A DNA stretch of 64,000 nt from an uncultured Pseudomonadota bacterium (GTDB taxonomy: Bacteria; Vulcanimicrobiota; Vulcanimicrobiia; Eremiobacterales; Eremiobacteraceae): the NCBI GenBank assembly GCA_963736005.1, contig CAVTNB010000003.1, forward strand, positions 453,445 through 517,444. The letters are read 5' to 3'. The notes below the pieces were generated by a model that was not told where the DNA came from, made no database searches, and saw only the letters and a list, made by a program, of their open reading frames with translations. The position numbers were made by a program, and so were the translations under genes. Positions 4,276-20,605 of the stretch are shown here, piece by piece (the first letter of the stretch is position 1; every line of letters starts with the position of its first letter).

Positions 4276-6663
4276 TCATTGCCCGAACTTCAAACCGACG
4301 TCGAAGAGCCGAGGTGGCGCATAGTGGTTGCCCTGCGCGTTGAGGATCGTCACATAGTAGCGATCGTTAAAGAGGTTTTGAATCCGAAACGTAAGGGCGG
4401 TCCGCGGTCCGACGCTCACGCCCTTCTCAACCGAGAAGATTGTGTGCGGTGTCTTCTTACAAAAGCCAGGAGTTCCGGCCGGACAAATGGCCGACGAGAG
4501 ACCGCTGCCATACTCCGCGTCCGCTGAAAACCACCCATTCTGATTGTCGTTCATGAGCATGCCGGCGGTGACGCTGTAGCTTTGATCGTGATCCGCGGGT
4601 GTGAACCCCGTGGGCGATCCGAAGCAGGGTGCAAGCAGCTGCGTTTCGCATCCCGAGTTCAACGACAGCGTGTGGGCGACGTTGACGTACGCCCGTCCGT
4701 TGCGAATGAGCGGCGCTTGGTAGGTTAGTGCTTCCTGCGAAAGCCGGCCAAGCGTGTAGTTGATGTCCTGATGGAGCAGCGTCACGCCAACTTGCGTGTC
4801 ATCGATGAGATCGTTGGCATTCTTCTGCCAAACGCGAAAGCCCAGGGTTCCATTACCCAACGGGAGATGGCCTCCAAGTTCGAGTTGCGTATCGCGCTCT
4901 GGTTTGAGATCGAATTGCGCGAGCGTCGACTGCAGCGGCAAGTTCAACAATTGCGCGGCTCGCGGATCGACGTTTTCAAGGGAGAATGGTTCGAAGAAGC
5001 GCCCTAGATACACATAGACACTCGCCCGAGGTCCGAAATTTCTCGCGAGCTTGATGCGCGGACTCACCGCGCCGAATCCACGGGCAAAATCTGTCGACTT
5101 GATGTTGAACAGATCCCAGCGCATTCCGTAGTCGAGTGTGTAGGCGTTCCCCATGGTCCAGCTATCCTCAACGTACGTGCTGTAGATGTTGCCCACGTTG
5201 GGATTGTTGTCCACCACCGTAAAGGGTGCATGCGGCATTCCTTTCGTAAAAATCGGCGCCAAGAAGTTGTTCGGTTGCAGCGTCACCTGATAGTCTTTGA
5301 TGACGCGGGTCCCATCGTAGGAGATGCCAGCGCGCAGTTCGTGCTTCTCGTATTGTTTTGAGTAATCGCTTTGAAAGATGTAATCCAGCGCCGTCTTGTC
5401 GTCGAAGAGCGAGAAGGCGCACGTGGTGGGAGAAAAGACTCCGGTTTGCACAGCCTTGGCGCAATCGGTGGAGCTTCCACCGTTGCCGAAAGGCGGTGGA
5501 GTTTGGTTGATAGCCTCTCCAAAGGCCCAGTCGTTGACCGGATCGCCGTAGTCCACAACACGCGAAACCTTAAATGCCGGTCCAAAACTGAGCGCGCCTG
5601 CATTGCCCAGAGCCTGGCGGAATTGAACATTGACGAAGGTGTCGAGTTGCTTCTCGCTGTCATCCGTGTTCCCAGGCTCTCCAAAGCTGGTAGCATTGGG
5701 TATTTGGTTTGTTTGGAAACTGTTGATGATCGAGACGTCGGTGAAGTTGTTATTGCCGCGCGGCAGCGTCAAGCGCACGAACTCATTCGCGTCGCTTGCG
5801 TTGTTGTGCGGCGAACCCAGGTCGGGCGGGTCTAAGCCGCGAGTGGACTGGTCGAGATGCAGAGCTGCAGCGAGCCCCCCACCACCACTAAGCGGTGAGT
5901 GGAACCCCAGCGTCTCGTCGAGGTTCGTGTACGAACCAACGTGCATTTCACCATCAACGCCCGCTGGTCCGGATTGGGCGCGGGTTGAGATGTTGAGTAC
6001 CGACCCGAATTTGAGTCCATACTGCGCCGGGTACGCACCCTCCATGGCATCGACGAACGATACATCGTTGGGATCGATCTCACTGCCGATCTCTCGATTG
6101 AGCGCCTGAGGCACCGCAACGCCGTCAACGACGTAGTTGATGACTCCGTGGTCGCCGTTGAGGTGCACAACGCCGTTGGCCCCGCGCACCGCGCCGGGCA
6201 GCTGGATGAGTGCTTCGGGGAAGTTGCCGTTGTATGGCAAGCGCGTCAATACCGTCTTGTTGAGAACCGTATCGGAGCCGCTGCCGCGGCTGACTCCGGA
6301 GGTCACAACGCTCACGCGTCCGAGTTCGGATATTTGAGCAAGCACGAGCATGACCGTTGCGCCGCCGTTGCTCAGATCCACCCGGACCTGAGCTTGCATG
6401 CCACTTGCTGTCGCGGTCACGATATACGTGCCAAGACCGAGACCCGGGAATGTAAAGTGCCCCTGCGGGTCCGTGATGACTTTGGCCGTGAAATTATTGC
6501 CAGCCACCGTGACCGCAGCCCCTGGAACGGACTTGCCGTCTGACGTGACCGTACCGGACAAGAAAGCGCTCCCACCGGCCGCTAGCACCGCGCTTTTTTC
6601 CAAATAGGTGCAAGCGCACCACATTATTGTGAGAACGAGAAAAAACCGAGAAAACTTCTCCAC
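4276..6663 (-). CDS. TonB-dependent receptor with N-terminal carboxypeptidase-regulatory-like domain
   Basis: Signal peptide, SGTVTSDGKSVPGAAVTV, plug motif GAYPAQYG, SPRI and LKPERD, C-terminal NLFNDRYY...PRLFDVGLKF. Confidence 0.85.
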   Translation of the reverse strand: MEKFSRFFLVLTIMWCACTYLEKSAVLAAGGSAFLSGTVTSDGKSVPGAAVTVAGNNFTAKVITDPQGHFTFPGLGLGTYIVTATASGMQAQVRVDLSNGGATVMLVLAQISELGRVSVVTSGVSRGSGSDTVLNKTVLTRLPYNGNFPEALIQLPGAVRGANGVVHLNGDHGVINYVVDGVAVPQALNREIGSEIDPNDVSFVDAMEGAYPAQYGLKFGSVLNISTRAQSGPAGVDGEMHVGSYTNLDETLGFHSPLSGGGGLAAALHLDQSTRGLDPPDLGSPHNNASDANEFVRLTLPRGNNNFTDVSIINSFQTNQIPNATSFGEPGNTDDSEKQLDTFVNVQFRQALGNAGALSFGPAFKVSRVVDYGDPVNDWAFGEAINQTPPPFGNGGSSTDCAKAVQTGVFSPTTCAFSLFDDKTALDYIFQSDYSKQYEKHELRAGISYDGTRVIKDYQVTLQPNNFLAPIFTKGMPHAPFTVVDNNPNVGNIYSTYVEDSWTMGNAYTLDYGMRWDLFNIKSTDFARGFGAVSPRIKLARNFGPRASVYVYLGRFFEPFSLENVDPRAAQLLNLPLQSTLAQFDLKPERDTQLELGGHLPLGNGTLGFRVWQKNANDLIDDTQVGVTLLHQDINYTLGRLSQEALTYQAPLIRNGRAYVNVAHTLSLNSGCETQLLAPCFGSPTGFTPADHDQSYSVTAGMLMNDNQNGWFSADAEYGSGLSSAICPAGTPGFCKKTPHTIFSVEKGVSVGPRTALTFRIQNLFNDRYYVTILNAQGNHYAPPRLFDVGLKFGQ

Positions 6664-6757
6664 GATGACTCCAACTCCTCATGAATATCTTCAAACGACG
6701 GCTGTCACAGCCGGCGTATGCCGACCGTAAGACGCGCGCTTTTAGGGCGCTAGGGGA

Positions 6758-7420
6758 TTACGCGAGGAGCGGAGGTGGACGGTTGGCGAGTTGCGGTGAC
6801 CAAAAGATGCTGCGTGGCGACCACGCGAAGTTCAAGCATGGCCGGAACACATGGGACGTCTCGCCAGCAGCTGGAAGCAGCATCGCCGCCAAGCGTGCTG
6901 CAACTCTTGGCAGTCGTGCGGCAATGAGCCGTCCAACAATGGCGAGCAACAGTGCCGTGACAAGGGCACCAACGACGCCTGCGATCACGTCATGACCGCA
7001 AAAGAAGCAACCCTCGCCGATCGCGCTGCCGACGCCGGCCGCAAATTGCAGGGTCGCCGCGAGCAAATAGAATTGCCAGCCGCCGCCCAGAGGCAGCGTG
7101 GCCATCTCATTTGAGAGCAGACGTTTAAAATCTCGGATACCACTGGCCCGCTGTGTCAGTCCGCGAAATTCACAGACGACGACCGTTGCGCTCGCAAGCG
7201 CGATCAGGGCAAGATAGGCGTGACGTGGGGAGAGCACAATGTGCGCGTCAGCATCTGCGCCCATCCCAAAAAACTCGGATGCCAAATGGGTGAGCACGGC
7301 ACCTACAACGATGCCCGCTGGAACGGTCCAACGCAAGCTCGATGCCTGAGCCCAATGTTGAGAGGTCACAGAAAACAATTTCCCCACTGATAAGTATCGG
7401 CTTGCCCAAAGCTGCGGCAT
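6758..7420 (-). CDS. Membrane protein with CxxC and C-terminal LANRPPP motif; putative regulatory leader of the downstream receptor
   Basis: About 4 hydrophobic segments, CFFCGHD, ends LANRPPPLLA. Start uncertain (ATG 7420 or GTG near 7369); the ORF-track extension to 7651 crosses the operator and is unlikely. Confidence 0.7.
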   Translation of the reverse strand: MPQLWASRYLSVGKLFSVTSQHWAQASSLRWTVPAGIVVGAVLTHLASEFFGMGADADAHIVLSPRHAYLALIALASATVVVCEFRGLTQRASGIRDFKRLLSNEMATLPLGGGWQFYLLAATLQFAAGVGSAIGEGCFFCGHDVIAGVVGALVTALLLAIVGRLIAARLPRVAARLAAMLLPAAGETSHVFRPCLNFAWSPRSIFWSPQLANRPPPLLA

Positions 7421-7438
7421 ATGCTGGTCATCACACTT

Positions 7439-7463
7439 GTTATCGAGAATCATTCTCGATAAC
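7439..7463. promoter_or_regulatory. Perfect palindromic operator GTTATCGAGAAT-C-ATTCTCGATAAC (Fur/Zur-type box)
   Basis: 12-1-12 inverted repeat between divergent genes; identical 23-bp core at 18543-18565. Confidence 0.85.
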
Positions 7464-7553
7464 CACAGCGGCTGACCTTCGCCTAGCATCATGAAAATGC
7501 CCTGAATCCCTTGCAATGGATGACTGACGAAATGCCGAACACTCATACAGAAT

Positions 7554-8231
7554 ATGCCAAACCGAGACCGCTTCGCCTGGCTCCTTATTACCGCGACTGC
7601 CCTTGCCGCCATGGTCGTCGGCCATGCACTAGAGCTGTGGCTTGAGAACATACATGCCTTTGGCGAGCGTCCTGCTCAGTATAACCACGTTGCCCAAAGC
7701 TTCGTCGTGGAAATGGCTGCGCTTGCGTTTCTCGTTGCAGGGGTCGCTCTTGTCAGCCGCCTGGTCGCTTTGGCGGCACGATCAGTTCCGCGCGGCGACT
7801 CCTTGTTGCCCGCGTTGCACGCGATTGCCCAAAACGGGGTGGGTCGAGTCATCTTGCGCCTCGTCACCGTACAGCTACTCGCGCTGCTGCTGACGGAGTT
7901 TTGCGAACAGCGGCTCTCTGGATTCCAGGGCAATGCGCTCCTGTCGATCGTCGGACCAGGTCACGCGACAGCGCTCGCTGTCCATCTGCTTTTGGGTTCG
8001 CTGGCTGCATTTTTGCTCTTTCGTTTTGCGCGCTTCGCGTCTGCGCGGACACGCTCACTCGTCCATGCCGTCGTTGCTTTCCTGCGCTGGGTTGCGCTGC
8101 AGCCCAACGGCACCGCGCAACTTCCGCATGGTCCCTCGAGCGTTCCCACATTTTTTGCCCGCAAGCTTTGCCTGATCTCTCTCGGACTTGCTAATAGACC
8201 ACCTCCGATAACCTCCGCACTTTTCGCCTAG
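7554..8231 (+). CDS. Membrane protein with His residues in or near TM segments and C-terminal LANRPPP motif; putative regulatory leader
   Basis: About 4 TM-like segments (GHALE, YNHVA, GPGHATALAVH); ends LANRPPPITSALFA 65 nt before the receptor ATG. Confidence 0.75.
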   Translation: MPNRDRFAWLLITATALAAMVVGHALELWLENIHAFGERPAQYNHVAQSFVVEMAALAFLVAGVALVSRLVALAARSVPRGDSLLPALHAIAQNGVGRVILRLVTVQLLALLLTEFCEQRLSGFQGNALLSIVGPGHATALAVHLLLGSLAAFLLFRFARFASARTRSLVHAVVAFLRWVALQPNGTAQLPHGPSSVPTFFARKLCLISLGLANRPPPITSALFA

Positions 8232-8296
8232 GCACAAAGCCGTCGTGGCTTTGGCATAGCCTAGGCTCCTTGCTATGCTTTTTGCGGAGGTCTTCC

Positions 8297-10582
8297 ATGC
8301 GATTTGTACTCGCAACCATTGTCTTGGCAATTCTTGTCACTATGTGCTCCTTGAACCCAGCATCCGCCGATGTCTACGGATCTGTGCGCGGCGTTGTTTT
8401 CGATCCTGGCAATCACCCCATCGACGGTGCGAAGGTCTCGCTCGCGGCGCCTGACGAAGCCACGCAAACAACGCCGACCGACTCCACTGGGCATTTCCGT
8501 TTTGCCCAGGTACCCTTCGACACATACGCACTGAGCGTTGATGCCCAAGGCTTCGCCCCAGCCTCGAGCGTGGTGACAGTTTTGTCGGGTAACGCGGTGG
8601 ACGTGACATTCCATCTTTCACTCAAGACGATCGGGCGGGTCGTCGCGGTGGGCACGTCGACGGGTGCATCAGGGCAACCCGTGAGCGTCAACGTTATTTC
8701 GCAACAAACCATAGCAGCGCTGCCCAACGGAAACTCGCTGCAGCGAATAGTACAGACCGTTCCCGGCGTCGTTCCGTTTTCATATAACGAACCGGTTGCG
8801 CGCGGCTTTCATGGCGTGACCTACGAGATCGACGGGGTCCCGTTACCGCAAACCGCGGGGCAGTACTTCTCCGAGATTATCGACCCGCGTGACGTCGATC
8901 GCCTCGAAGTGTTCACGGGCGCAATGCCCGCCGAGTTCGGCGGTCAGCGTCAGGGCGCCGTGGTTGACGTGCTCACGAAGTCCGCGAACCAGTTCATCGG
9001 CCCAGATGGGGGTACCGTGTCTCTGTTCGGCGGATCGTATAATACCGCTGGTGTGTCGCTCGATCAGGTGGCTGGAAGCGGAAATTTCCGCGCATTCTTC
9101 AACGCCAATCTGTTTCGGAACGCACGTGGTTTGGATTCTCCAACGAGCTCCCCCGAGCACGACAACTCCAATCAGAGCGACGGCTTCTTGCGACTTCTGT
9201 TCTCGCCGAGCTCGCGCGATACGCTGGCGTTTGACTATTCCGAGCAGTATGCAGCGTTCCAAATTCCAATCGACACGAACCAACACGACCCTAACAACCC
9301 AAATTGGTCAGTGCCCGGCACCGACGACAACCAACACGAGTATACCCGCTTTGCGAATCTCACGTACAATCACACAAGCGCCGATGGCAATGGCTTTTTC
9401 GAGTTGACGCCCTGGTGGAGTTCGGACCGGCTCACCTATCTGCCGGATCCGCAGAACGACCTCGCCGGCGCCTCGCAATCCTCGACCTTCCAGGACCGTT
9501 ACTCCAACTTTGTCGGTCTCGCAGCCGCTCTGTTTCGTGGTGGTGAAAGGAACAGCGTCAAAGTTGGAGTCAACACCGACGTTCAAAACATGATGAGCGC
9601 GTTCAACATCTTGTTCATCGACCCAAACACCGGGAAGCTTGCGCCTCCTTTTGAGGACAACGTTGCTCAACGCGGAACGAACACGGGAGTCTATGCCGAA
9701 GACAAGTTCTATGCCTCGCCTTACGTGACCCTAGACGGCGGCCTTCGCTGGGATCACTCGACTGGCTTCACGTCTGGCAATCAGATTAGCCCGCGCATTG
9801 AAGCCAATTTTCAGGCAGACCCAAAGAACGTTGTCCATTTTTACTACGGCCGCTTGTATGCCGCACCAGCCCTCGAAGACGTGCGGCGAGATGCAGTCGT
9901 TATTGGCGGCGGTTCGTCTAACGCAGTGCCGGTGTACGACCTCAAACCTGAGCGAGACTCTATTTATGAGGCCGGCGTTGCGCACGAGTTCAGTCCGCTC
10001 GTGCACGGCTTCCTTACCTTGTGGGGTCGGTCAGTCAACAACGTCCTCGATACGACGCAGATCGGCAGTACGCCGTTGTTTACGGTCTTCAACTCTGCGG
10101 GAGGTCAGGCAAGCGGCGTGGAGTTTCGCATCAACGGCCGCGTCCTCAATGGCAACTCCTATTACTTCTCGTATGGCACAAGCTACAGCATCGCGTCAGG
10201 CATCTCCGGCGGAACGTTCAACTTCCCAGTCAGCGCGCTGCAGGGTGCCAACGGGTGGGCGCTCGAGGACCACGATCAAACGAACACGATCAACACGGCG
10301 TACACGTTCACTGCTCCCGGTGGCCGGTTCGCGACGCTGCAAGCCCTCTTTGGCAGCGGCTTCCCAGTGCAGTTCGAAAATGGCCCGGGGCGGCTGCCGG
10401 CGCACTGGGAACTTGGCGCCTCGTACGGACAGCCGGCGTCGCGCACGGGCGTGGGCTGGGAAGTGAGCGGCACGAACCTGCTCAATCACTTCTATCTAAT
10501 CAAAGTCGCGAACGGGTTCAACTCCACGCAGTACTCGGCCGGAAGGCAGGTTACTGTGAAGTTGACGGCGCCTGTCTACTAA
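8297..10582 (+). CDS. TonB-dependent receptor with N-terminal carboxypeptidase-regulatory-like domain
   Basis: SD GGAGG before ATG 8297; signal peptide; GAMPAEFGG, ISPRI, LKPERD, NLLNHFY...GRQVTVKL. Confidence 0.88.
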   Translation: MRFVLATIVLAILVTMCSLNPASADVYGSVRGVVFDPGNHPIDGAKVSLAAPDEATQTTPTDSTGHFRFAQVPFDTYALSVDAQGFAPASSVVTVLSGNAVDVTFHLSLKTIGRVVAVGTSTGASGQPVSVNVISQQTIAALPNGNSLQRIVQTVPGVVPFSYNEPVARGFHGVTYEIDGVPLPQTAGQYFSEIIDPRDVDRLEVFTGAMPAEFGGQRQGAVVDVLTKSANQFIGPDGGTVSLFGGSYNTAGVSLDQVAGSGNFRAFFNANLFRNARGLDSPTSSPEHDNSNQSDGFLRLLFSPSSRDTLAFDYSEQYAAFQIPIDTNQHDPNNPNWSVPGTDDNQHEYTRFANLTYNHTSADGNGFFELTPWWSSDRLTYLPDPQNDLAGASQSSTFQDRYSNFVGLAAALFRGGERNSVKVGVNTDVQNMMSAFNILFIDPNTGKLAPPFEDNVAQRGTNTGVYAEDKFYASPYVTLDGGLRWDHSTGFTSGNQISPRIEANFQADPKNVVHFYYGRLYAAPALEDVRRDAVVIGGGSSNAVPVYDLKPERDSIYEAGVAHEFSPLVHGFLTLWGRSVNNVLDTTQIGSTPLFTVFNSAGGQASGVEFRINGRVLNGNSYYFSYGTSYSIASGISGGTFNFPVSALQGANGWALEDHDQTNTINTAYTFTAPGGRFATLQALFGSGFPVQFENGPGRLPAHWELGASYGQPASRTGVGWEVSGTNLLNHFYLIKVANGFNSTQYSAGRQVTVKLTAPVY

Positions 10583-11027
10583 GCCGGGACTGTGCACGCG
10601 ACCACCACGCAAGGTAGATCGCCGCAGCAAAGAGACTCACGTCGCGTAGCACCGTCATCCACGTCGCGGGTTGATTGTCGCCTGGACCAAAGCAACCGCA
10701 AGGCGCACTCAACCCGCGGATGACGGCCGAAGCAACGATAACCGAGAAGAGCGCGAGCACAGCAGCCGCGACCGCTGAAGACACCGGAAGCAGGAGCCCC
10801 GCTACGAGATAAATCCCAAGCAGTATCTCAAGTGGCGGGAGCGCGAGCGCCAAGCCTGCAACAAACGGGGGAGGCGCGCCAAGCTTGTAGGCGGTTATCG
10901 CCGCGGCGAGATCGGCGGGATGGCCAATTTTCAAGATGCCTGCAGCGAGGAAAATGCCGCCGACGATAAGGCGTACGAGGAAGGGAACAATATGAGCGCG
11001 AGGCCCAAAGAGACGAGCCAGGGTCAA
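10551..11027 (-). CDS. MauE/DoxX family membrane protein
   Basis: RLIVGGIFLAAGILKI, LPPLEILLG, RGLSAPCGCFG. Start uncertain (TTG 11027); 5' end overlaps the divergent TlpA gene. Confidence 0.8.
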   Translation of the reverse strand: MTLARLFGPRAHIVPFLVRLIVGGIFLAAGILKIGHPADLAAAITAYKLGAPPPFVAGLALALPPLEILLGIYLVAGLLLPVSSAVAAAVLALFSVIVASAVIRGLSAPCGCFGPGDNQPATWMTVLRDVSLFAAAIYLAWWSRAQSRLSRQAPSTSQ

Positions 11028-11645
11028 AAGGCCGCCACCTCGCCGCCACGCCGACCCACAAGCGTGCTCTTGCCAGCCATCGTCGCGTTGGTTGCGATTG
11101 CTGCTATCATTGTCTACGCGGTTCTGCACGCCAACCGAGCCGTTCCTGGGTCTGCTGTCGCAACCGACTCGCCTGCGCTCCCACCGCCAATCAAAGCCGG
11201 CGCGCAAGCGCCCGGGTTTGCGTTGCCCAGCAAGATTGGCACGTTTTCCTCAAGCGAACTTGACGGCACGCCCTATCTCTTGGAGATTTTTGCGACGTGG
11301 TGCCCGCACTGCCAGCGCATGACGAAGGTTCTGCGCGCGATTCGCGCGAGCGTACCGCAAGCGCGTCTCGGCATGGTTTCGGTGACCGGCTCGCCGTACG
11401 CGGCTAATTCGACGCCGGACAATCTCGTTCCCGAAAATCAAGGTGACGTTGATGCATTTGAGTCAACGTTCGGCGTCACGTGGCCGAGCTTTTACGATCC
11501 CGACCTTACGGTGGCAAAGAAGTGGGGCTTGGATGGCTTCCCGACGATCTTCATCGTCAATGCAAAAGGAACGATCGTCTACGCAACGAGCGGGGAAGTA
11601 TCAAAAACCGAATTGATGAACGCCATAAAGAAGGCCGGCGCTTAG
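10992..11645 (+). CDS. TlpA/ResA-like thiol-disulfide oxidoreductase
   Basis: N-terminal TM anchor, FATWCPHC, cis-Pro motif GFPTIFIVNAKG. Confidence 0.88.
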   Translation: MSARPKETSQGQKAATSPPRRPTSVLLPAIVALVAIAAIIVYAVLHANRAVPGSAVATDSPALPPPIKAGAQAPGFALPSKIGTFSSSELDGTPYLLEIFATWCPHCQRMTKVLRAIRASVPQARLGMVSVTGSPYAANSTPDNLVPENQGDVDAFESTFGVTWPSFYDPDLTVAKKWGLDGFPTIFIVNAKGTIVYATSGEVSKTELMNAIKKAGA

Positions 11646-14659: not shown

Positions 14660-15471
14660 TAGCTTCCCGGAAAATAAGGCACGGCGTCGATGTCCTGGGT
14701 AATGATTCCATGGTACGTGCCGTGTCCAAAGGCAGTCAGATCGACGGAGAACAAGCCGCCGTTGGTTGTGACGCGCACCGTCACAAGGCCCAGCGGCACG
14801 TCGGTCGTCTGCCACGTTTCGACGCGCGATTCGGGCAGTCCGGTCGAACCTCCGATATCTCGTGGGGGAAAGTCGACACTGGTATGCACCGTGTTGAGCG
14901 TGGCGCCGCGGATCGAAACGTTCTCCGGCCGAGATGAAACGACGATCCCGGCGCGAGTGTCGGGCATCGGCAACAAGCCGAACAGCAAGAGCGATTGGAG
15001 CGTTTGGTGGTATGTGGCAGGCACTGGCTTCGATGGGTCGCCACCCAAACGAAAGAGCGCGTCGCCGATCTTGATGATGCCGCCGGCGAATGAATAGAGC
15101 CGCAGGCTGTCGTTGAAATCCGGTGCGTCGACGAACATCTTCCAGGTAATGGTTCCCCCCGCGACCGACTGGCTCGCCACGGGTGAAGAGACCAGTCCAG
15201 ACGTCTGTGTTTGAATTTCAAAGAACGCCGCCTGCGTGGCTCCAAGTGTGCCAGTTCCAAAGCCGATCGTCTTCGTCGCAACCGGATTGCCATTCACCGA
15301 GACTCGATAGCGTACCCAATCACCCGCCTGTGGGGCGACAAAGAGATAACCAAAGAGATCGGTCTGCGTGATGGTCTGGCCAACCTGCGGAGCGACGATT
15401 GCCGCACGCGCGGGCGCGAGCAAGCCCAGCATCACCCCCACCAGCTCGGCGGTTACGAGCAGCGCGCGCAC
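14659..15471 (-). CDS. Secreted hypothetical protein
   Basis: 270 aa, signal peptide ending ARA, coupled to its neighbours. Confidence 0.7.
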   Translation of the reverse strand: MRALLVTAELVGVMLGLLAPARAAIVAPQVGQTITQTDLFGYLFVAPQAGDWVRYRVSVNGNPVATKTIGFGTGTLGATQAAFFEIQTQTSGLVSSPVASQSVAGGTITWKMFVDAPDFNDSLRLYSFAGGIIKIGDALFRLGGDPSKPVPATYHQTLQSLLLFGLLPMPDTRAGIVVSSRPENVSIRGATLNTVHTSVDFPPRDIGGSTGLPESRVETWQTTDVPLGLVTVRVTTNGGLFSVDLTAFGHGTYHGIITQDIDAVPYFPGS

Positions 15472-15884
15472 ACGCCGAAAAATTCCAGTTGATGCTCCGT
15501 GAGCGAAAATCCGAGTCCGCGCGATAGGATCCTCTCGTAGTTGGGCAGCGCTTTGCAGGGAACGTCATCGACGCGGCCGCAGCGCTTGCACACGGCGTGA
15601 TGGTGATGCTCGCTCGCGCACCAGAGGTAGGCTGCTTCGCCATGCTGTTGGGTTGCGGTCGACACCCAACCCATCTCACGCAGCGCCTCGAGCGTTCGGT
15701 AAATGGTCGCGAGTCCGACGGGCGGGCGTCGGCCACGCATCCGCTCGTGCAGCTCTTTGGCGGTGAGGTAGCGGCGCGCCGATCGCAGCGCGCCAATCAC
15801 GTGCTGGCGCTGTTTGGTCATGCGACGCGATGTGCCTGCGAAAAGTTCGCGAGAGCCTATCGGCGGCTTTGCGGGGGTTTTCAT
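15453..15884 (-). CDS. zur: Fur-family regulator, probably Zur
   Basis: RMTKQR, GLATIYRTL, HHHHAVCKRCG, FFGVCARC; lies within a metal ABC operon. Metal specificity is inferred. Confidence 0.8.
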   Translation of the reverse strand: MKTPAKPPIGSRELFAGTSRRMTKQRQHVIGALRSARRYLTAKELHERMRGRRPPVGLATIYRTLEALREMGWVSTATQQHGEAAYLWCASEHHHHAVCKRCGRVDDVPCKALPNYERILSRGLGFSLTEHQLEFFGVCARCS

Positions 15885-16744
15885 TTGACGCGTGCAGCCG
15901 TTCGGCGCGCATCGAGCAGCGCGGTCAGCAACGAGCGGCGCTTGGGTGAGAAGATCATGGCGCCGAAGAAGCACGCGGTTGCGACGAGGACGATGCTTGC
16001 GCCCGAAGCGACGTTGAGATAGAAGGAGAGATACAGACCGACGATGGCCGATCCCATCCCGACGATGGCAGAAATGAACATCATTGGGCCGAATCGGTTG
16101 GTGAGTTGGTACGCGGTGGCCGCAGGCGTCACAAGCAACGCGGCAACTAAGACGATACCGGCCGCCTGGAGTGAAACGATGATCGTGACCGCCAAAATCC
16201 CAAGCAAGAGATAGGAGAGGCCGTCCACCGGCAGCCCGCTGGCGCCGGCCGAGACGGGGTCAAACGAGGCAAAGAGCAGCTCTTTGTAGAGCAACGCGAT
16301 GACAGCGAGAATGACCGTCGTCAGCAAAGCAATGATGACGATATCCTTGCGATCGATCGCTAAGATGTTGCCGAAGAGAAAATCTTGAAGATCGATGACG
16401 TAATTCTTGACGTGTGACATGAGCGCAATGCCCAGAGCAAACGCAGCGGTAAAAAACACGCCGATCGTCGTATCGAGCGAGACTTCCGATTTCTTGCTCA
16501 CAGCGCCGATCCCAAGCGCCGTGAGAATGGTAAAAATGAGTCCGCCAATGTACAGATCGAACTTCAGGAGATACGCGATGACGATGCCAGCGAACGATGC
16601 GTGCGCCAGACCGTCGCCGATAAACGACATATTGCGGAGCACGACGTAGACCCCGACAATCGAGCAGACGAGTCCAATGAGCAGCGCGGTTATGAGTGCG
16701 CGCACCATAAAATCGTTCTGCAGGGGCGAAATGAGAAGATCCAC
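15881..16744 (-). CDS. znuB: Zn/Mn ABC transporter permease
   Basis: GVYVVLRNMSFIGDGLAHASFAG, FLFGNIL, ALLVTPAATA. Confidence 0.88.
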   Translation of the reverse strand: MDLLISPLQNDFMVRALITALLIGLVCSIVGVYVVLRNMSFIGDGLAHASFAGIVIAYLLKFDLYIGGLIFTILTALGIGAVSKKSEVSLDTTIGVFFTAAFALGIALMSHVKNYVIDLQDFLFGNILAIDRKDIVIIALLTTVILAVIALLYKELLFASFDPVSAGASGLPVDGLSYLLLGILAVTIIVSLQAAGIVLVAALLVTPAATAYQLTNRFGPMMFISAIVGMGSAIVGLYLSFYLNVASGASIVLVATACFFGAMIFSPKRRSLLTALLDARRTAARVK

Positions 16745-16748
16745 GTCG

Positions 16749-17645
16749 TTACGCCGGCGTTGGGGCGCCGAAGAGCACGTGGCTGCCATAGGTGGCCGAG
16801 AGCGTTTCCCGAGTGAGGACTTCGGAGGGCGAACCGAAGGCAACGACGCGATGGTTGAGGGCCAAGACCCGATCGAACCACTCCGCCACGCACGAAAGAT
16901 CGTGGGTCGTGGCGATGATCGTAGTGCCCTTCTGCTTCAGCCCTTCGAGCAAGGTAAAGATGGCGTGCTGCGTGGTTGCGTCGACCCCAGCGATCGGCTC
17001 GTCGAGCAGCATGAGCTGCGGGCGTTGCACGAGCGCGCGGGCGACGAAAACGCGCTGTTGCTGACCGCCTGACAGCTGGCCGATTTGCGCGCCAGCGTAG
17101 GCTGACATGCCCAACTGTTCTATGGCTTCTGCCGCTGCCTGACGGTCCGCTGCGCTCGGCCTTCGGAAGAGTCCCACGCGACCGTAGGTGCCCATGAGGA
17201 CGACGTCGGTGACGGTGACCGGGAACGACCAATTGACCGACTCGCTTTGCGGCACGTAGCCGATGAGATGGCGCACTTCGGGGCTGGGCGGTTGCCCAAA
17301 AACGAGCACTGAGCCGCATTGCACGGGCAAGAGGCCGGCAATGACTTTCAACAGCGTTGACTTACCGGATCCGTTTGGGCCGATGATGCCGACGAACTCG
17401 CCCCGCTTGACGCCAAACGTTACCTCGTCGAGCACGTCCCTGCCGAAATAGCCGGCGCACACCCCCTCCACCCACAACGCCTGCTCGGCGATTTTGTCGA
17501 GGCTCGGTGCGACCTTGGCATGGCCTTCGTGAGGATGGGTGTGAAAAGTTGCTGGCGCCACGGCATGGCTGTGGTCCAACGCGGGCGGAACTTCATGTGG
17601 CGCAACGTGCGTATGATCGTGTCGCACGGCCGGATCGCTTTTCAT
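16749..17645 (-). CDS. znuC: Zn/Mn ABC transporter ATPase with His-rich N-terminus
   Basis: GPNGSGKST, LSGGQQQR, LLDEP, TTHDL. Confidence 0.9.
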   Translation of the reverse strand: MKSDPAVRHDHTHVAPHEVPPALDHSHAVAPATFHTHPHEGHAKVAPSLDKIAEQALWVEGVCAGYFGRDVLDEVTFGVKRGEFVGIIGPNGSGKSTLLKVIAGLLPVQCGSVLVFGQPPSPEVRHLIGYVPQSESVNWSFPVTVTDVVLMGTYGRVGLFRRPSAADRQAAAEAIEQLGMSAYAGAQIGQLSGGQQQRVFVARALVQRPQLMLLDEPIAGVDATTQHAIFTLLEGLKQKGTTIIATTHDLSCVAEWFDRVLALNHRVVAFGSPSEVLTRETLSATYGSHVLFGAPTPA

Positions 17646-18556
17646 TTGAGCGCCTGCACGATCGTCTTGACGTCGTGATGCATCATGCCCTCGTAGGAGC
17701 TGAGATCGGGAGTGGTGCCCAAGGAGTCATCGTACAAATTGGTGACCGTCTTGATGCCTGCCGAATCCGCAAGTTGCTTGGCGAGCTTCGGGGAGAATTC
17801 CGGCTCGGCGAAGATTGCTCGCACATTGTGCGCTTTTGCTCTTGCAATGAGCGACACGAGGTCGGCCGCTGAGGGTTCTTTGCCAGGCGACTGCTCGATC
17901 GCGCCGACGTCATCGATGCCATAACGCCGATCGAAGTAAAACCAAGCGTCGTGGTCGGCGATCATGGCACGCTGACTCGGCGGAATGGTTGAAATTTGCT
18001 GACGGGTCCACGCATCAAGCGCGGCAAGGTCTTTGACTTCTGCCGCGGCGTTCTTTCGGTATAAGGCAGCGTGAGCAGGGTCCGTTGCCACGAGCGCATC
18101 GGCAATCGCGCGCACGTACGAAGCGGCGTACTGCGGATCGAGCCAAAAGTGGGGGTTGGCAAATTCGCTGCCGTTTGGATGGCTCACTTGTCTGGGGAGC
18201 GAGTCGCTCAGCACCTCAATGCGCGCCTGCGGCGAGGCGTCTGCCAGCAGTTTTGTCAGCCACGCTTCCAATCCCGAACCATTTTCCACGATCACCGCGG
18301 CATGGCTGAGCTCGATGAGATCCCGCGGCGCCGGTTCGTACGTTTCAGGAGATGCGCCGATGGGCACGAGCCAATGAACCTCGAGTGCGTCCCCCGCGAC
18401 CGTTTTGACAAGGGAGGCGAGGGTGGAGGTGGTCGCGACGACGATTGGTTTCCCGGAAGCGGTCGCAGCGGGAGCGGTACCCGTGCTGTGCCCGCACGCC
18501 AGCAGTGCAGCTATGGCCACGCATACCGAACCAGCTCGGATTTTATCGAGAATCAT
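17642..18556 (-). CDS. znuA: Zn/Mn ABC transporter substrate-binding lipoprotein
   Basis: Lipobox LLAC, ETYEPAP, NPHFWLDP, HDAWFYF. Confidence 0.9.
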   Translation of the reverse strand: MILDKIRAGSVCVAIAALLACGHSTGTAPAATASGKPIVVATTSTLASLVKTVAGDALEVHWLVPIGASPETYEPAPRDLIELSHAAVIVENGSGLEAWLTKLLADASPQARIEVLSDSLPRQVSHPNGSEFANPHFWLDPQYAASYVRAIADALVATDPAHAALYRKNAAAEVKDLAALDAWTRQQISTIPPSQRAMIADHDAWFYFDRRYGIDDVGAIEQSPGKEPSAADLVSLIARAKAHNVRAIFAEPEFSPKLAKQLADSAGIKTVTNLYDDSLGTTPDLSSYEGMMHHDVKTIVQALK

Positions 18557-18565
18557 TCTCGATAA
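18543..18565. promoter_or_regulatory. Second copy of the palindromic Zur-type operator, overlapping the predicted znuA start
   Basis: TTATCGAGAATCATTCTCGATAA, identical to 7440-7462. Confidence 0.85.
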
Positions 18566-18842: not shown

Positions 18843-20605
18843 ATGGTAAGTCCGTTCAAAGGTGGGGGATGTATGCGAGGGTTTCAACTAAAACCCAGGC
18901 AGACAAGAAGCTGTCGATCCCCGTTCAATTGGGCCTAATGAGGGCACATGTCAAGTCAAGTGGGTGGCAGGAGGTTGCAGCTTTCGAGGAGCCGGGGAAG
19001 TCCGGCACATTGGTCAAGCGTCTGCCTGTCTTGAATGGCCCTGATCGAGGAAGCCACTGGCCCAGCGCCCCGCTTCGACACGGTGCTAGTTTACGACATT
19101 TCCCGCTGGGGGGCCGCAACACGGATGCAGTCTTGGCAAAGGAAGTCATACGCCAGCGGGGGATTCGAGTAATTTATCTCGCCGAGCAAACGGGCGAGAC
19201 TGAGGAATCGGAGGACATTGAGGGTGCTGTTCGAATGGCTTGCCAAGATGCACAGCCGGTGTTCTGGCGCGCAAGGTTCCCAAAAGTCAACGTGAAGCAG
19301 TCAAGGAGGGCCGCTGGGGCAGCGGAGTGCCGCAAGTGTTCGGGTACTTCACACAAAAAGGAAAAGGTCTGGTCCCCAATCCACAGACGGCACCCATAGT
19401 TCTACAATGTTTCAAGAAGTACGCTGCTGGTGATCAATCCGCTCGATTGCAAAATGGCTAAACACAAATGTTTCAGCCCAGCGAGGCGGATCGTGGCGTA
19501 GTGGAACGGTCCACAACCTTCTTACTAGACGCGCGTACCTCGGGCACATAACCTACGGCGCTGCACCGAGTGAACGGTAAGCGTGTTCGACTTTCGACTC
19601 GAAGAGAGAACGGAAAATCCTAACCAGTACAAACGACTTGTGCTGCAGAGACTTTTCGATCAGGTTCAAGAACGTCTCAGCCGTAACGATCAGAGCCGCG
19701 CAGAAGGTTGTCTCAACGGAATGTGCTCGCGGTTGTCGGACGGTGCAAGTGCGGTTCAACTCTAACCTTTCAAAAAGGTGGTGGCCCTCGCAAGGACCGC
19801 AAAAAATATCGCTCGCTGGTTCTGGCACTGCAGCCGCTGTCGCCTGAATGTTGATCCGAGGCGCAATTTCGAGGGGTGCTACGGCTACTTTCCGCAGGAC
19901 GTAGTCGAGACGATGATTCGGGATAGGATGCATTTTCTTCTTGCTGCTGGTGGAATAAAGCAAGCCGTTCAAGCATACAATGCCGCTGCTGCTCAGGCCT
20001 CGGAGCCACCGGAACTTGCTACTCTCAAAACGATGGTCGATGGTCTCAGGAAGCGTGAGCGCAGCCTCGTTGAATTCATCGGTGACGGTTCTCGAAGTTT
20101 CGATGCCGTTGCCGAGGACCTGGAGAAAGCAAACGGACTGCCAGGATGCAGAAGAAAAACCTAGCACAAGTGCTGGCTCGGGTCTGCCAGATTCAATCAC
20201 CGATTGACGAAGCAGAGATTGAAGGCGCTTCTGATAAAATCCGCAAGGCCCTCAAAGCCGGAGACATTGCCAAACTAGCAGTTGTCTTACCTCACCTTGT
20301 GTCGAAGATTGAAATAGACTTCACGTTGCGACACGATACCGCAAAATACTGGCGCAGACGGGCACAAGATTTTCTTGAAACTCTTGCAAGAGAAACTCGC
20401 AAGAAGTGTGACGAGAAAAACATTTCTAGATTGGAAGTCCGCGTATGATGAAAACGACAAATTGCAGGCCGCTGCTCATCGTGGTCTCGTCATGCATCTG
20501 AAGTACGACATAGCTAACCTGGCTTCAGCCGGTCAAGAGGCTCTCGAAGCAGTTGGCGAGTATGCCCACGGGCACACTTCGGAAGCGTTACTCTCCAAAG
20601 CCTAA
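18843..20605 (+). pseudogene. Large serine recombinase (integrase), multiply frameshifted as assembled
   Basis: YARVST catalytic Ser, SIPVQL, EPGKSG; other frames give DTVLVYDISRW, FGY..LVPNPQTAPIV, SIAKWLN...W..GTVHNLLTRRAYLG, a Cys cluster and a coiled coil. Ends are approximate. Confidence 0.85.

Follow-up and report, generated by a model that had tools for sequence, protein, structure and literature searches.

Two divergent RPPP-ending membrane proteins as candidate arrest-peptide leaders of TonB-dependent receptors in the Eremiobacteraceae

Introduction

Can a membrane protein encoded immediately upstream of an outer-membrane receptor act as a translational switch for that receptor, by holding the ribosome on its own last codons? 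The question is raised by a stretch of DNA of 64,000 nucleotides (nt) from an uncultured bacterium of the Eremiobacteraceae (GenBank assembly GCA_963736005.1, contig CAVTNB010000003.1, positions 453,445 to 517,444), hereafter the window, whose own numbering is used throughout. Two divergent open reading frames (ORFs) of about 220 amino acids (aa) each, at 6758-7420 on the minus strand and at 7554-8231 on the plus strand, share the ending LANRPPP, and behind each of them, in the same orientation, lies a TonB-dependent receptor gene. An earlier reading of this DNA, made without database searches (the sequence-only reading), had proposed that the two ORFs belong to a metal-sensing, ribosome-stalling system, analogous to known ones and architecturally different from them. 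Here, we follow this proposal through homologue searches, comparison of loci, and modelling of RNA and protein structure. The answer that we regard as rather probable is that both proteins (leader A on the plus strand, leader B on the minus strand) are arrest-peptide leaders with an R-x-P-P core, which would gate the translation of the downstream receptor by uncovering its Shine-Dalgarno (SD) sequence, the nascent four-helix protein serving as a periplasm-facing metal sensor, under a common Fur/Zur-type repressor.

Results

An invariant C-terminal motif in two leader families

Leader A (7554-8231, plus strand) is a predicted four-transmembrane (four-TM) protein of 225 aa with the C-terminus ...LGLANRPPPITSALFA, in which the N-R-P-P-P codons, the predicted stall site, lie at 8193-8207. 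Leader B (6758-7420, minus strand), likewise a predicted four-TM protein, counts 220 aa from ATG 7420 and has the C-terminus ...SPQLANRPPPLLA, with its N-R-P-P-P codons at 6770-6784; its start is uncertain, the longest reading extending up to 7651, and may be either ATG 7420 or a TTG ~40 nt downstream, which the closest homologue uses. The ORF list and the hydropathy profiles thus bear out the description of two divergent, multi-TM ORFs of ~220 aa that end in LANRPPP close to the stop. In the whole assembly (2.84 Mb, 6 contigs, 84% complete), RPPP falls within the last 20 residues of 37 of the 42,391 stop-to-stop ORFs that measure 40 aa or more, and only leaders A and B have LANRPPP there; since the motif is moreover kept by all aligned homologues of the two leaders (28 of 28 and 30 of 30), the pair is not due to chance.

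The leaders had also been described as dissimilar outside this ending, and this was upheld by BLASTP, whose sole match between them is LANRPPP(L/I), with 7 of 8 positions identical; it had to be tempered when family alignments were compared, since hhalign assigns family A and family B a relationship at 95% probability (E 3e-8), matching 201 columns and keeping the helices in register, a score inflated by the common hydrophobic helices and the common motif. Leaders A and B would thus probably be remote paralogues. A convergent gain of the motif by the two families was considered as well and is disfavoured, the same hhalign score, inflated as it is, favouring common descent.

A word-indexed protein search retrieved 29 relatives of leader A and 31 of leader B, down to ~40% identity. 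Among 28 aligned family-A sequences, L-A-N-R-P-P-P is invariant, within a tail motif that reads LGLANRPPP, and N-R-P-P-P is likewise invariant among 30 aligned family-B sequences. An exhaustive profile search with family A returned 94 proteins (E <= 0.001) among 1.84 billion representatives, which carry at their C-terminus RPPP (62), RAPP (17), RSPP (4), RGPP (3), or none of these (8); the last eight comprise five fragments of <=170 aa and three proteins near full length with a different C-terminus. All 81 full-length family-A rows have RxPP, with x being P, A, G or S. On their tree, which was built without the motif and tail, by a quick method that leaves many forks weakly supported, x changed at least 6 times and the Arg and Pro-Pro never did. 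The family-B profile search yielded 116 proteins on hand, of which 112 end in RPPP, the remaining four being three fragments and one protein with a different C-terminus. The conservation of NRPPP that the sequence-only reading had anticipated is therefore found throughout, and a C-terminal R-x-P-P core, the hallmark of the RAPP-like class of arrest peptides, is present in 28/28, 30/30 and 112/116 proteins. The motif lies 1-11 codons from the stop. A distant family-B branch (P0225-P0234) ends in F-[SA]-F-R-Y-R-P-P-P, with Tyr replacing Asn before the Arg, and is devoid of the Cys motif described below.

Is it the peptide or the underlying RNA that is conserved? The Leu, Ala, Asn and Arg codons of the motif already differ synonymously between the genes of leaders A and B. 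More broadly, 35 leader-downstream gene junctions were collected from 23 loci (22 of family A and 13 of family B), and in their 35 leaders all six Arg codons occur at the motif (CGA 1, CGC 9, AGA 4, CGT 11, CGG 8, AGG 2), all four Pro codons are used at each Pro position, and the Asn position reads AAC in 20, AAT in 9, or the Ser codon AGC in 6. Because the codons vary while N-R-P-P-P is kept, selection acts on the peptide; that the motif is kept by RNA pairing alone was rejected on the same codon counts.

The substitutions that evolution has tolerated can be set beside those tolerated in the laboratory. In mutagenesis of ApdA and ApdP, the Arg is reported as irreplaceable, Gly at x as fully permissive, and Ser, Asp and Pro as partly permissive, Pro being nearly as good as wild type for ApdP in Bacillus subtilis; the RxPP motifs that came out of an Escherichia coli screen cited in the same paper had G, A, S or P as x (PMC12992588). 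As judged from the alignments, the natural x series matches this arrest-competent set of residues, and the motif appears to behave as an arrest core, not as an RNA element or a docking motif.

Four-helix proteins with conserved ligands at a fixed distance from the motif

Neither leader matches any Pfam-A family (hmmscan, E <= 1) or any NCBIfam model. Since no Pfam match appears even at E <= 1, membership of DUF2946, the family of the known copper-responsive leaders against which the sequence-only reading had set them, is excluded, and neither A nor B has the DUF2946-type CxxC (or CxxxC) ~45 residues before the stall motif. The proteins of both families measure ~190-260 aa and thus stay under 300 aa. 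Instead of the Sec signal peptide of a small exported protein, they show four hydrophobic helices joined by loops that are basic and acidic in turn: hydropathy predicts four TM helices per leader, the stretches that are basic (K+R 2-8) being the N-terminus, the helix 2-3 loop and the extended C-terminal tail, and the acidic loops between helices 1 and 2 and between helices 3 and 4 bearing the conserved ligands. By the positive-inside rule, these loop charges would place both termini in the cytoplasm (N-in/C-in) and the ligand clusters, His/Glu or Cys/His/Asp, on the periplasmic face.

The conserved residues are putative metal ligands. Family A, which has no conserved Cys among its 28 aligned sequences, keeps His24, Glu27, Glu31, Tyr43, His45, Gln48, Asp82, Gln107, Glu115, Glu118, His137 and His144 invariant. 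Family B keeps Trp207, His45, His67 and the motif G-E-G-C-x-x-C-x-H-D invariant among its 30 aligned sequences, leader B carrying CFFCGHD within GEGCxFCGHD. The CFFCGHD of the minus-strand ORF and the conserved His residues of the plus-strand ORF, to which Glu can be added, are hence both present, as the sequence-only reading had noticed. The distance from these ligands to the motif is nearly constant: the last periplasmic motif of family A stands 74-76 residues before the Asn of NRPPP in 28 of 28 rows, and the end of CxxC[GS]HD in family B stands 67-70 residues before it in 27 of 27 rows, which are those with the motif inside a positional filter, three further rows falling outside it. The end of helix 4 precedes the second Pro by ~53-61 residues in A and by ~53 in B, which exceeds the length of the ribosomal tunnel.

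AlphaFold2 models of the leaders (mean confidence, pLDDT, of 78 for A and 76 for B) show four long helices in a bundle, with the last 40 residues disordered, and Foldseek searches with these models found no related solved fold.

TonB-dependent receptors behind the leaders

The gene of receptor A (8270-10582, plus strand) is listed from TTG 8270, its likelier start being ATG 8297, which follows a GGAGG; accordingly, 38-65 nt separate it from the stop of leader A. The gene of receptor B (4276-6663, minus strand; 795 aa) begins with GTG 94 nt past the stop of leader B, so that each receptor indeed starts less than 100 nt downstream of its leader. Receptor A has CarboxypepD_reg (5.4e-17), Plug (1.6e-12) and TonB beta-barrel (5.3e-16) domains. 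Receptor B has CarboxypepD_reg (3.8e-13) and TonB_dep_Rec_b-barrel (1.1e-10), and we count it as a TonB-dependent receptor with a Plug (0.0069) that scores below the Pfam cut-off. Against solved structures (phmmer), receptor A gives weak matches to ferric-enterobactin receptors (E ~1e-5) and receptor B none. A relationship to the transporter CrtA, with a PepSY_TM gene downstream, was not found, the phmmer comparison covering solved structures only; no PepSY domain was detected in the neighbours scanned, a MauE-like and a thioredoxin-like gene that both adjoin receptor A, the scan not extending past receptor B.

The pairing of leader and receptor holds across loci. A same-strand downstream gene follows a protein of under 300 aa with hydrophobic localisation helices and the motif near its C-terminus in 35 of 35 junctions, as in the RAPP-like class, and this gene is a receptor-A orthologue behind 20 of 22 family-A leaders and a receptor-B orthologue behind 13 of 13 family-B leaders. 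Without four junctions that come from unpublished genomes (L001, L020), the counts are 18 of 20 and 11 of 11. The expected linkage of homologues to TonB-dependent receptors is thus observed in both families. The twin divergent layout recurs in 12 loci including that of the window, family A standing alone in 10 and family B in 1, two of these single-leader loci ending at a contig end.

A predicted helix between the motif region and the receptor Shine-Dalgarno sequence

How could an arrest at the end of the leader be read out by the receptor gene? In unit A, a 9-nt anti-SD strand at 8211-8219 (plus strand), formed by codons 2-4 after PPP, is predicted to build a 9-base-pair (bp) helix with the SD strand of receptor A at 8283-8291 (plus strand), which contains the GGAGG located six bases before ATG 8297 (z-score -3.33; 0 of 200 shuffles fold as well). 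In unit B, the anti-SD strand at 6761-6784 (minus strand) covers N-R-P-P-P and three tail codons, and its PPP and tail codons are predicted to pair with the SD region of receptor B at 6669-6680 (minus strand), where GGAG stands five nt before the GTG with GAGGAG ahead of it (z-score -1.85; 10 of 200 shuffles fold as well); counted from where the PPP codons end, the SD partners there occupy -5 to -1 nt.

Such pairing is predicted in every junction. In the minimum-energy folds of 35 of 35 junctions, at least 3 SD bases pair with positions -13 to +12 of the PPP codon end, that is, with a strand inside the footprint of a stalled ribosome, when 34 other same-strand junctions of the window's genome (with SD, ATG and long ORFs), a crude control that may include unit A, gave 6 paired at the equivalent offset and 21 paired anywhere. 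The helices count 5-13 bp, and their sequence varies between loci with complementarity being kept. The mean probability of the SD being unpaired is 0.013, and it stays below 0.3 in 35 of 35 junctions; in thermodynamic modelling, masking the footprint of a ribosome with the second Pro codon in its P site raises the mean to 0.34.

Covariation was obtained in one subset only, 8 of the 13 family-B junctions, those with the anti-SD strand just after PPP, picked after the helices had been seen. There, RNAalifold returns the anti-SD/SD helix as the only consensus element, with compensatory changes in 5 of 8 pairs; 0 of 500 shuffles attain its covariation score, and when the partner is slid by 1-3 columns, the paired share falls from 95% to 27-51%. 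If the set is restricted to the six rows that stem from published genomes, this helix is returned again, with compensatory changes in 4 of 8 pairs. Among members, the position of the anti-SD strand shifts between the PPP and tail codons, and alignments lose register.

The tails of family B frequently have Leu-Gln after PPP (e.g., L001, L004, L006, L007), encoded as CUCCAG, the complement of a CUGGAG SD; this conservation is probably driven by the RNA helix.

A palindrome shared with a znuA-type operon

Between the two leaders lies a perfect 23-bp palindrome (7440-7462; 11-1-11) with the core GAGAAT-n-ATTCTC, a candidate operator of the Fur/Zur family. Fur boxes take the form of an AT-rich inverted repeat, 7-1-7, with an AAT-n-ATT core. 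A second copy, identical over all 23 bp, is found at 18543-18565, at the start of a znuA-type operon (15453-18556, minus strand) that encodes a ZnuA-family binding protein (17642-18556, minus strand; ZnuA 1.4e-76), an ATP-binding cassette (ABC) ATPase (ABC_tran 2.8e-32), an ABC-3 permease (3.7e-79) and a Fur-family regulator (15453-15974, minus strand), the sole PF01475 match in the assembly, which scores below the cut-offs of the Fur, PerR, Irr and Zur models. A genome-wide scan with the core (15 nt, <=2 mismatches) gave four matches, two of which are the identical copies, and related boxes (GAGAAT-n-ATT[CA]TC) occur at 7 other loci among 30 examined. An inverted repeat is therefore common to the promoters of both leader units and of a metal-uptake operon, which supports the palindrome as a putative Fur-family operator shared with a Zn/Mn importer; the Zur-type operator of the sequence-only reading is sustained at this level, that of a Fur-family site whose second copy fronts an operon ending in the only Fur-family gene. 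Zinc is our best guess for the metal rather than a result, and is favoured over Mn or Cu.

The second palindrome overlaps the listed znuA-type ATG (18554-18556), its centre supplying that ATG, so that the true start may lie further in. Just past the znu promoter stands a short ORF (18869-19399, plus strand) with a resolvase N-terminal match (8e-7).

Distribution and genomic surroundings of the leaders

The organism names attached to homologues are restricted to Candidatus Eremiobacteraeota, Candidatus Eremiobacteraceae and one Candidatus Acidoferrales genome. Of 401 genomes that were sampled across the phylum, 32 gave a match to the family-A profile (the window's genome included), with 23 of 29 in the window's own family, 8 of 297 weak matches in a sister family, and 0 of 74 among the genomes searched in 19 further families. 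At the same position, the weak sister-family matches carry RGPP (L024, L027), RAPP (L025, L026, L029) or NRAPP (L028). Where the neighbour is readable, a receptor-type gene comes next in four of five: L024 and L027 have receptor genes, and L025 and L026 have genes that start with the receptor-type CarboxypepD_reg domain, at which the locus ends. The fifth, L028, has a LytR_cpsA_psr gene (L028:895-1518).

The same combination appears in the window's genome, where a third four-helix membrane protein (G000 C3:301879-302538; L032:380-1039, plus strand), with RAPP four residues from its stop, precedes a LytR_cpsA_psr gene (8e-30); the family-A profile aligns with it at 80% probability over 71 columns. 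A RAPP-type leader is thus paired with a LytR-CpsA-Psr gene both here and in the sister-family genome with NRAPP, which suggests that the four-helix module also gates a cell-envelope enzyme.

Some further observations concern individual loci. Receptor A is adjoined by a MauE/DoxX-like membrane protein gene (10551-11207, minus strand) and a TlpA/ResA-like thioredoxin-fold protein gene (10920-11645, plus strand), ORFs that overlap head to head, and by eye a similar pair stands beside the leader of L015. In L022 (G134:C1:747717-748377), the family-A gene is split over two frames (profile positions 5-129 and 130-224), which could be a frameshift or an assembly error. Two family-A copies ~3 kb apart are found at G041:C11:404572-408290.

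Discussion

A proposed mechanism

We infer that each unit would be transcribed as a two-gene message, whose first gene would encode a four-TM, N-in/C-in protein with a cytoplasmic RPPP tail. The receptor SD would be locked in a long-range helix, with a partner strand formed by the PPP codons or by the one to four that come next, and a ribosome held at R-P-P-P, with Pro codons in its P and A sites, would cover this strand and free the SD, so that the receptor would be translated only during leader arrest. On the sensing side, the ligand cluster, made of His/Glu in A or Cys2/His/Asp in B, would sit at the periplasmic ends of the helices and would need helix 4 for its completion; since helix 4 ends ~53-61 residues before the stall point, it would be just out of the ribosome at the stall, and metal binding or bundle packing in the nascent chain may then set the duration of the arrest. 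The likeliest polarity would be that of the Bordetella leader CruR, in which the presence of metal would release the arrest and switch the receptor off. Above this layer, the Fur/Zur-family repressor would act on the common palindrome to switch both units together with the znuA-type ABC importer.

A more far-reaching version of this scheme can be sketched, which we advance tentatively and would ourselves call doubtful in its entirety. The repressor would read cytoplasmic metal and the leaders, while being made, periplasmic metal, in a two-compartment logic; helix 4 would complete the ligand site facing the periplasm ~55 residues ahead of the peptidyl-transferase centre; packing of the helix bundle, driven by metal, would pull on the nascent chain, release the RPPP arrest and re-close the ribosome-binding site; the twin sensors would discriminate between two metals or complexes; and the module would have been re-used for CopC-linked and LytR-CpsA-Psr genes.

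What speaks against arrest-peptide leaders, and what else could explain the locus

Besides the post hoc choice of the covarying subset, several observations weigh against the arrest-peptide proposal. On the side of the peptide, replacing the Ala of RAPP by Pro permits arrest only in part, both in ApdA and, when assayed in E. coli, in ApdP (PMC12992588). On the side of synteny, the 35 junctions come from related lineages and are no independent trials, and two family-A leaders (L015, L019) are followed by an unknown exported protein of 352-355 aa in place of a receptor. On the side of the RNA, the six control junctions paired at the equivalent offset satisfy the same pairing rule as the leaders, and C-rich PPP codons tend to pair with a G-rich SD anyway. 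RNAalifold finds no consensus structure in all 13 family-B junctions together, because their alignment left the SDs out of register, and in the first nine of the 22 family-A junctions it gives -0.37 kcal/mol with invariant C-G pairs only. A promoter-like site between leader A and receptor A (8251-8279, plus strand; TTGGCA-17-TATGCT with TG) could, if real, transcribe receptor A without its leader. A look-up of RNA sequencing runs that cover the locus returned none. As to zinc, the AztC (Zn) and MntC (Mn) models give the ZnuA-family binding protein similar scores, below the cut-off for both.

Beyond taking the place of the receptor, the unknown protein of L019 is followed by a gene of the CopC/YobA type (L019:1450-3529; PF04234 1.8e-24; copper_CopC 1e-27), and by appearance a similar ORF, unscanned, is present in L015 (minus strand); such CopC-linked family-A leaders hint at copper. 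In the Atlas, the unknown protein of L019, looked up at 295 aa, falls in unnamed clusters, the nearest named cluster being one in which 39% of the members have Phenol_MetA_deg, which is a lead only.

The alternative that survives best, although we judge it unlikely, is translational coupling: the four-TM proteins would be working inner-membrane partners of the receptors (e.g., small metal permeases or chaperones), the anti-SD helix would do no more than link translation of the receptor to that of the leader, and RPPP would be a constitutive pause resolved by the elongation factor EF-P, with no sensing involved. EF-P is encoded in the genome, and it normally relieves pauses at PPP. Moreover, in both leader families conservation extends along the entire protein (mean column identity 53% and 40%) and includes many invariant polar positions inside the helices, which suits proteins that have a function of their own no less than it suits sensors. 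Any ribosome reading the last codons would open the SD helix, and in the thermodynamic model the masked footprint frees the SD only partly, leaving it mostly free (P > 0.5) in just 6 of 35 junctions. However, coupling leaves unexplained why R and PP are fixed and x is limited to P, A, G or S over 81 full-length relatives, why the motif keeps to the last codons before the stop and to a fixed distance from the last periplasmic motif, and why these genes have retained RPPP, reported as the strongest staller of the XPPP series and as under-represented in E. coli (PMC4176338).

A transcriptional read-out, in which the stalled ribosome would block Rho or a terminator in the spacer, seems improbable to us as the principal mechanism and could operate alongside SD unmasking. 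It is the mechanism proposed for CruR and its target BfrG (PMC9426467), and the spacers here, of 40-110 nt, do hold stable hairpins, but a terminator scan detected no terminator-like site in either leader-receptor spacer, and the feature conserved over the 35 junctions is SD pairing, by a helix that covaries in the family-B subgroup. As for NRPPP being a motif of the mature protein (docking, sorting or protease recognition) and SD pairing a mere by-product of C-rich Pro codons, proline-rich tails are often binding motifs, PPP codons pair with GGAGG by composition, and 6 of 34 controls do so at the same offset, but we hold this very improbable, given that the allowed x residues match the arrest-competent set and no known docking motif (PMC12992588), that in many junctions the anti-SD strand lies in variable tail codons and covaries with the SD flanks, and that the tail is predicted to be disordered, with a poorly conserved peptide after PPP.

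Comparison with described arrest systems

With arrest-peptide leaders as the preferred reading, a close counterpart is CruR (Bp2923) of Bordetella pertussis, a DUF2946 (PF11162) protein that mediates the copper-responsive control of the TonB-dependent transporter BfrG/CrtA (PMC9426467, PMC12914433), and whose arrest has been toeprinted (PMC12992588). As in CruR, the leader gene here lies directly upstream of a TonB-dependent transporter, R-x-P-P stands a few residues from the C-terminus, and metal-type ligands are conserved at a fixed distance from the motif, which in CruR is required for expression of the downstream gene (PMC9426467). CruR is a protein of 145 aa with a signal peptide and a CxxC 45 residues before RAPP, responds to copper, and is proposed to act through Rho termination (PMC9426467). 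By contrast, the leaders described here have ~220 aa, four predicted TM helices, no DUF2946 match and RPPP as their core, with ligands 67-76 residues upstream, a predicted SD-sequestering helix, and an operator pointing to Zn or Mn.

A second counterpart is CutF of Rhodobacter capsulatus (PMC9973294), in which a stall at a PPP repeat melts a stem-loop by which the following gene's ribosome-binding site is shielded (bioRxiv 10.1101/2025.02.05.636593). A C-terminal PPP stall motif, the sensing of periplasmic metal by a nascent chain and an interplay with EF-P would be common to both systems; CutF differs in its small size, its secretion, its DUF2946 membership and its motif GPPPRL, where no Arg precedes PPP, as well as in its target, a multicopper oxidase, and in that copper induces its stall. 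The general principle, by which a ribosome that stalls on the last part of an upstream ORF undoes a helix hiding a downstream SD, is also that of SecM-secA and MifM-yidC2, where release is thought to be due to force on the nascent chain during membrane targeting. SecM and MifM report on the machinery for secretion or insertion and regulate components of it, whereas outer-membrane receptors and a metal-type site are concerned here. With regard to the operator, the Zur-regulated, TonB-dependent zinc receptors ZnuK and ZnuL of Caulobacter likewise sit in the outer membrane and have their operator in common with a zinc ABC importer, but it reads GTTA-n5-TAAC instead of GAGAAT-n-ATTCTC, and the account of them describes no leader peptide (PMC4176598).

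More widely, a 2025 survey reported RAPP/RGPP leaders as enriched upstream of TonB receptor, YcnI, PCuAC and PepSY genes, its TonB-linked leaders being almost all of the signal-peptide type (PMC12992588). Families A and B resemble this class: they are small membrane proteins that carry the motif close to the C-terminus, the gene behind them runs in the same direction and is often metal-related, and, as in ApdA, ApdP and ApcA, the Arg and Pro-Pro do not vary, whereas what lies N-terminal to the core is specific to each family (PMC12992588). The survey would have missed RPPP families because only RAPP and RGPP were extracted; the string RPPP does not occur in its text, which also has no description of families A and B, of their phylum or of the twin divergent layout (PMC12992588). 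A literature search on NRPPP, ANRPPP, the RPPP motif and arrest in Eremiobacter returned no description of the system, its coverage stopping short of the supplementary ORF lists of PMC12992588 and PMC10987492. The proposal of an analogous but architecturally different system thus holds as an interpretation, the architecture being less unprecedented than had been claimed, since arrest has been reported for four-TM proteins of Streptomyces lividans with conserved His and Cys, such as SLIV_18480 (PMC12992588). What distinguishes the present case is the RPPP core, the two new four-TM sensor families, the twin divergent layout, the Fur/Zur layer and the lineage.

Implications

Metal-sensing arrest-peptide leaders have been described only from 2022 to 2025, surveys have targeted RAPP and RGPP, and the leaders described here would add a natural family with RPPP as its dominant core. 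The restriction of x to P, A, G or S within one family amounts to an evolutionary replica of mutagenesis and gives reason to widen the motif searches. With two paralogous polytopic candidate sensors, different ligand sets and compact predicted anti-SD switches, the locus may also provide a test bed, suited to asking whether the folding of a membrane-embedded metal site releases an arrest and how such a release interplays with a Fur/Zur repressor. For a little-studied and mostly uncultured soil lineage, it would offer a first regulatory handle on metal uptake.

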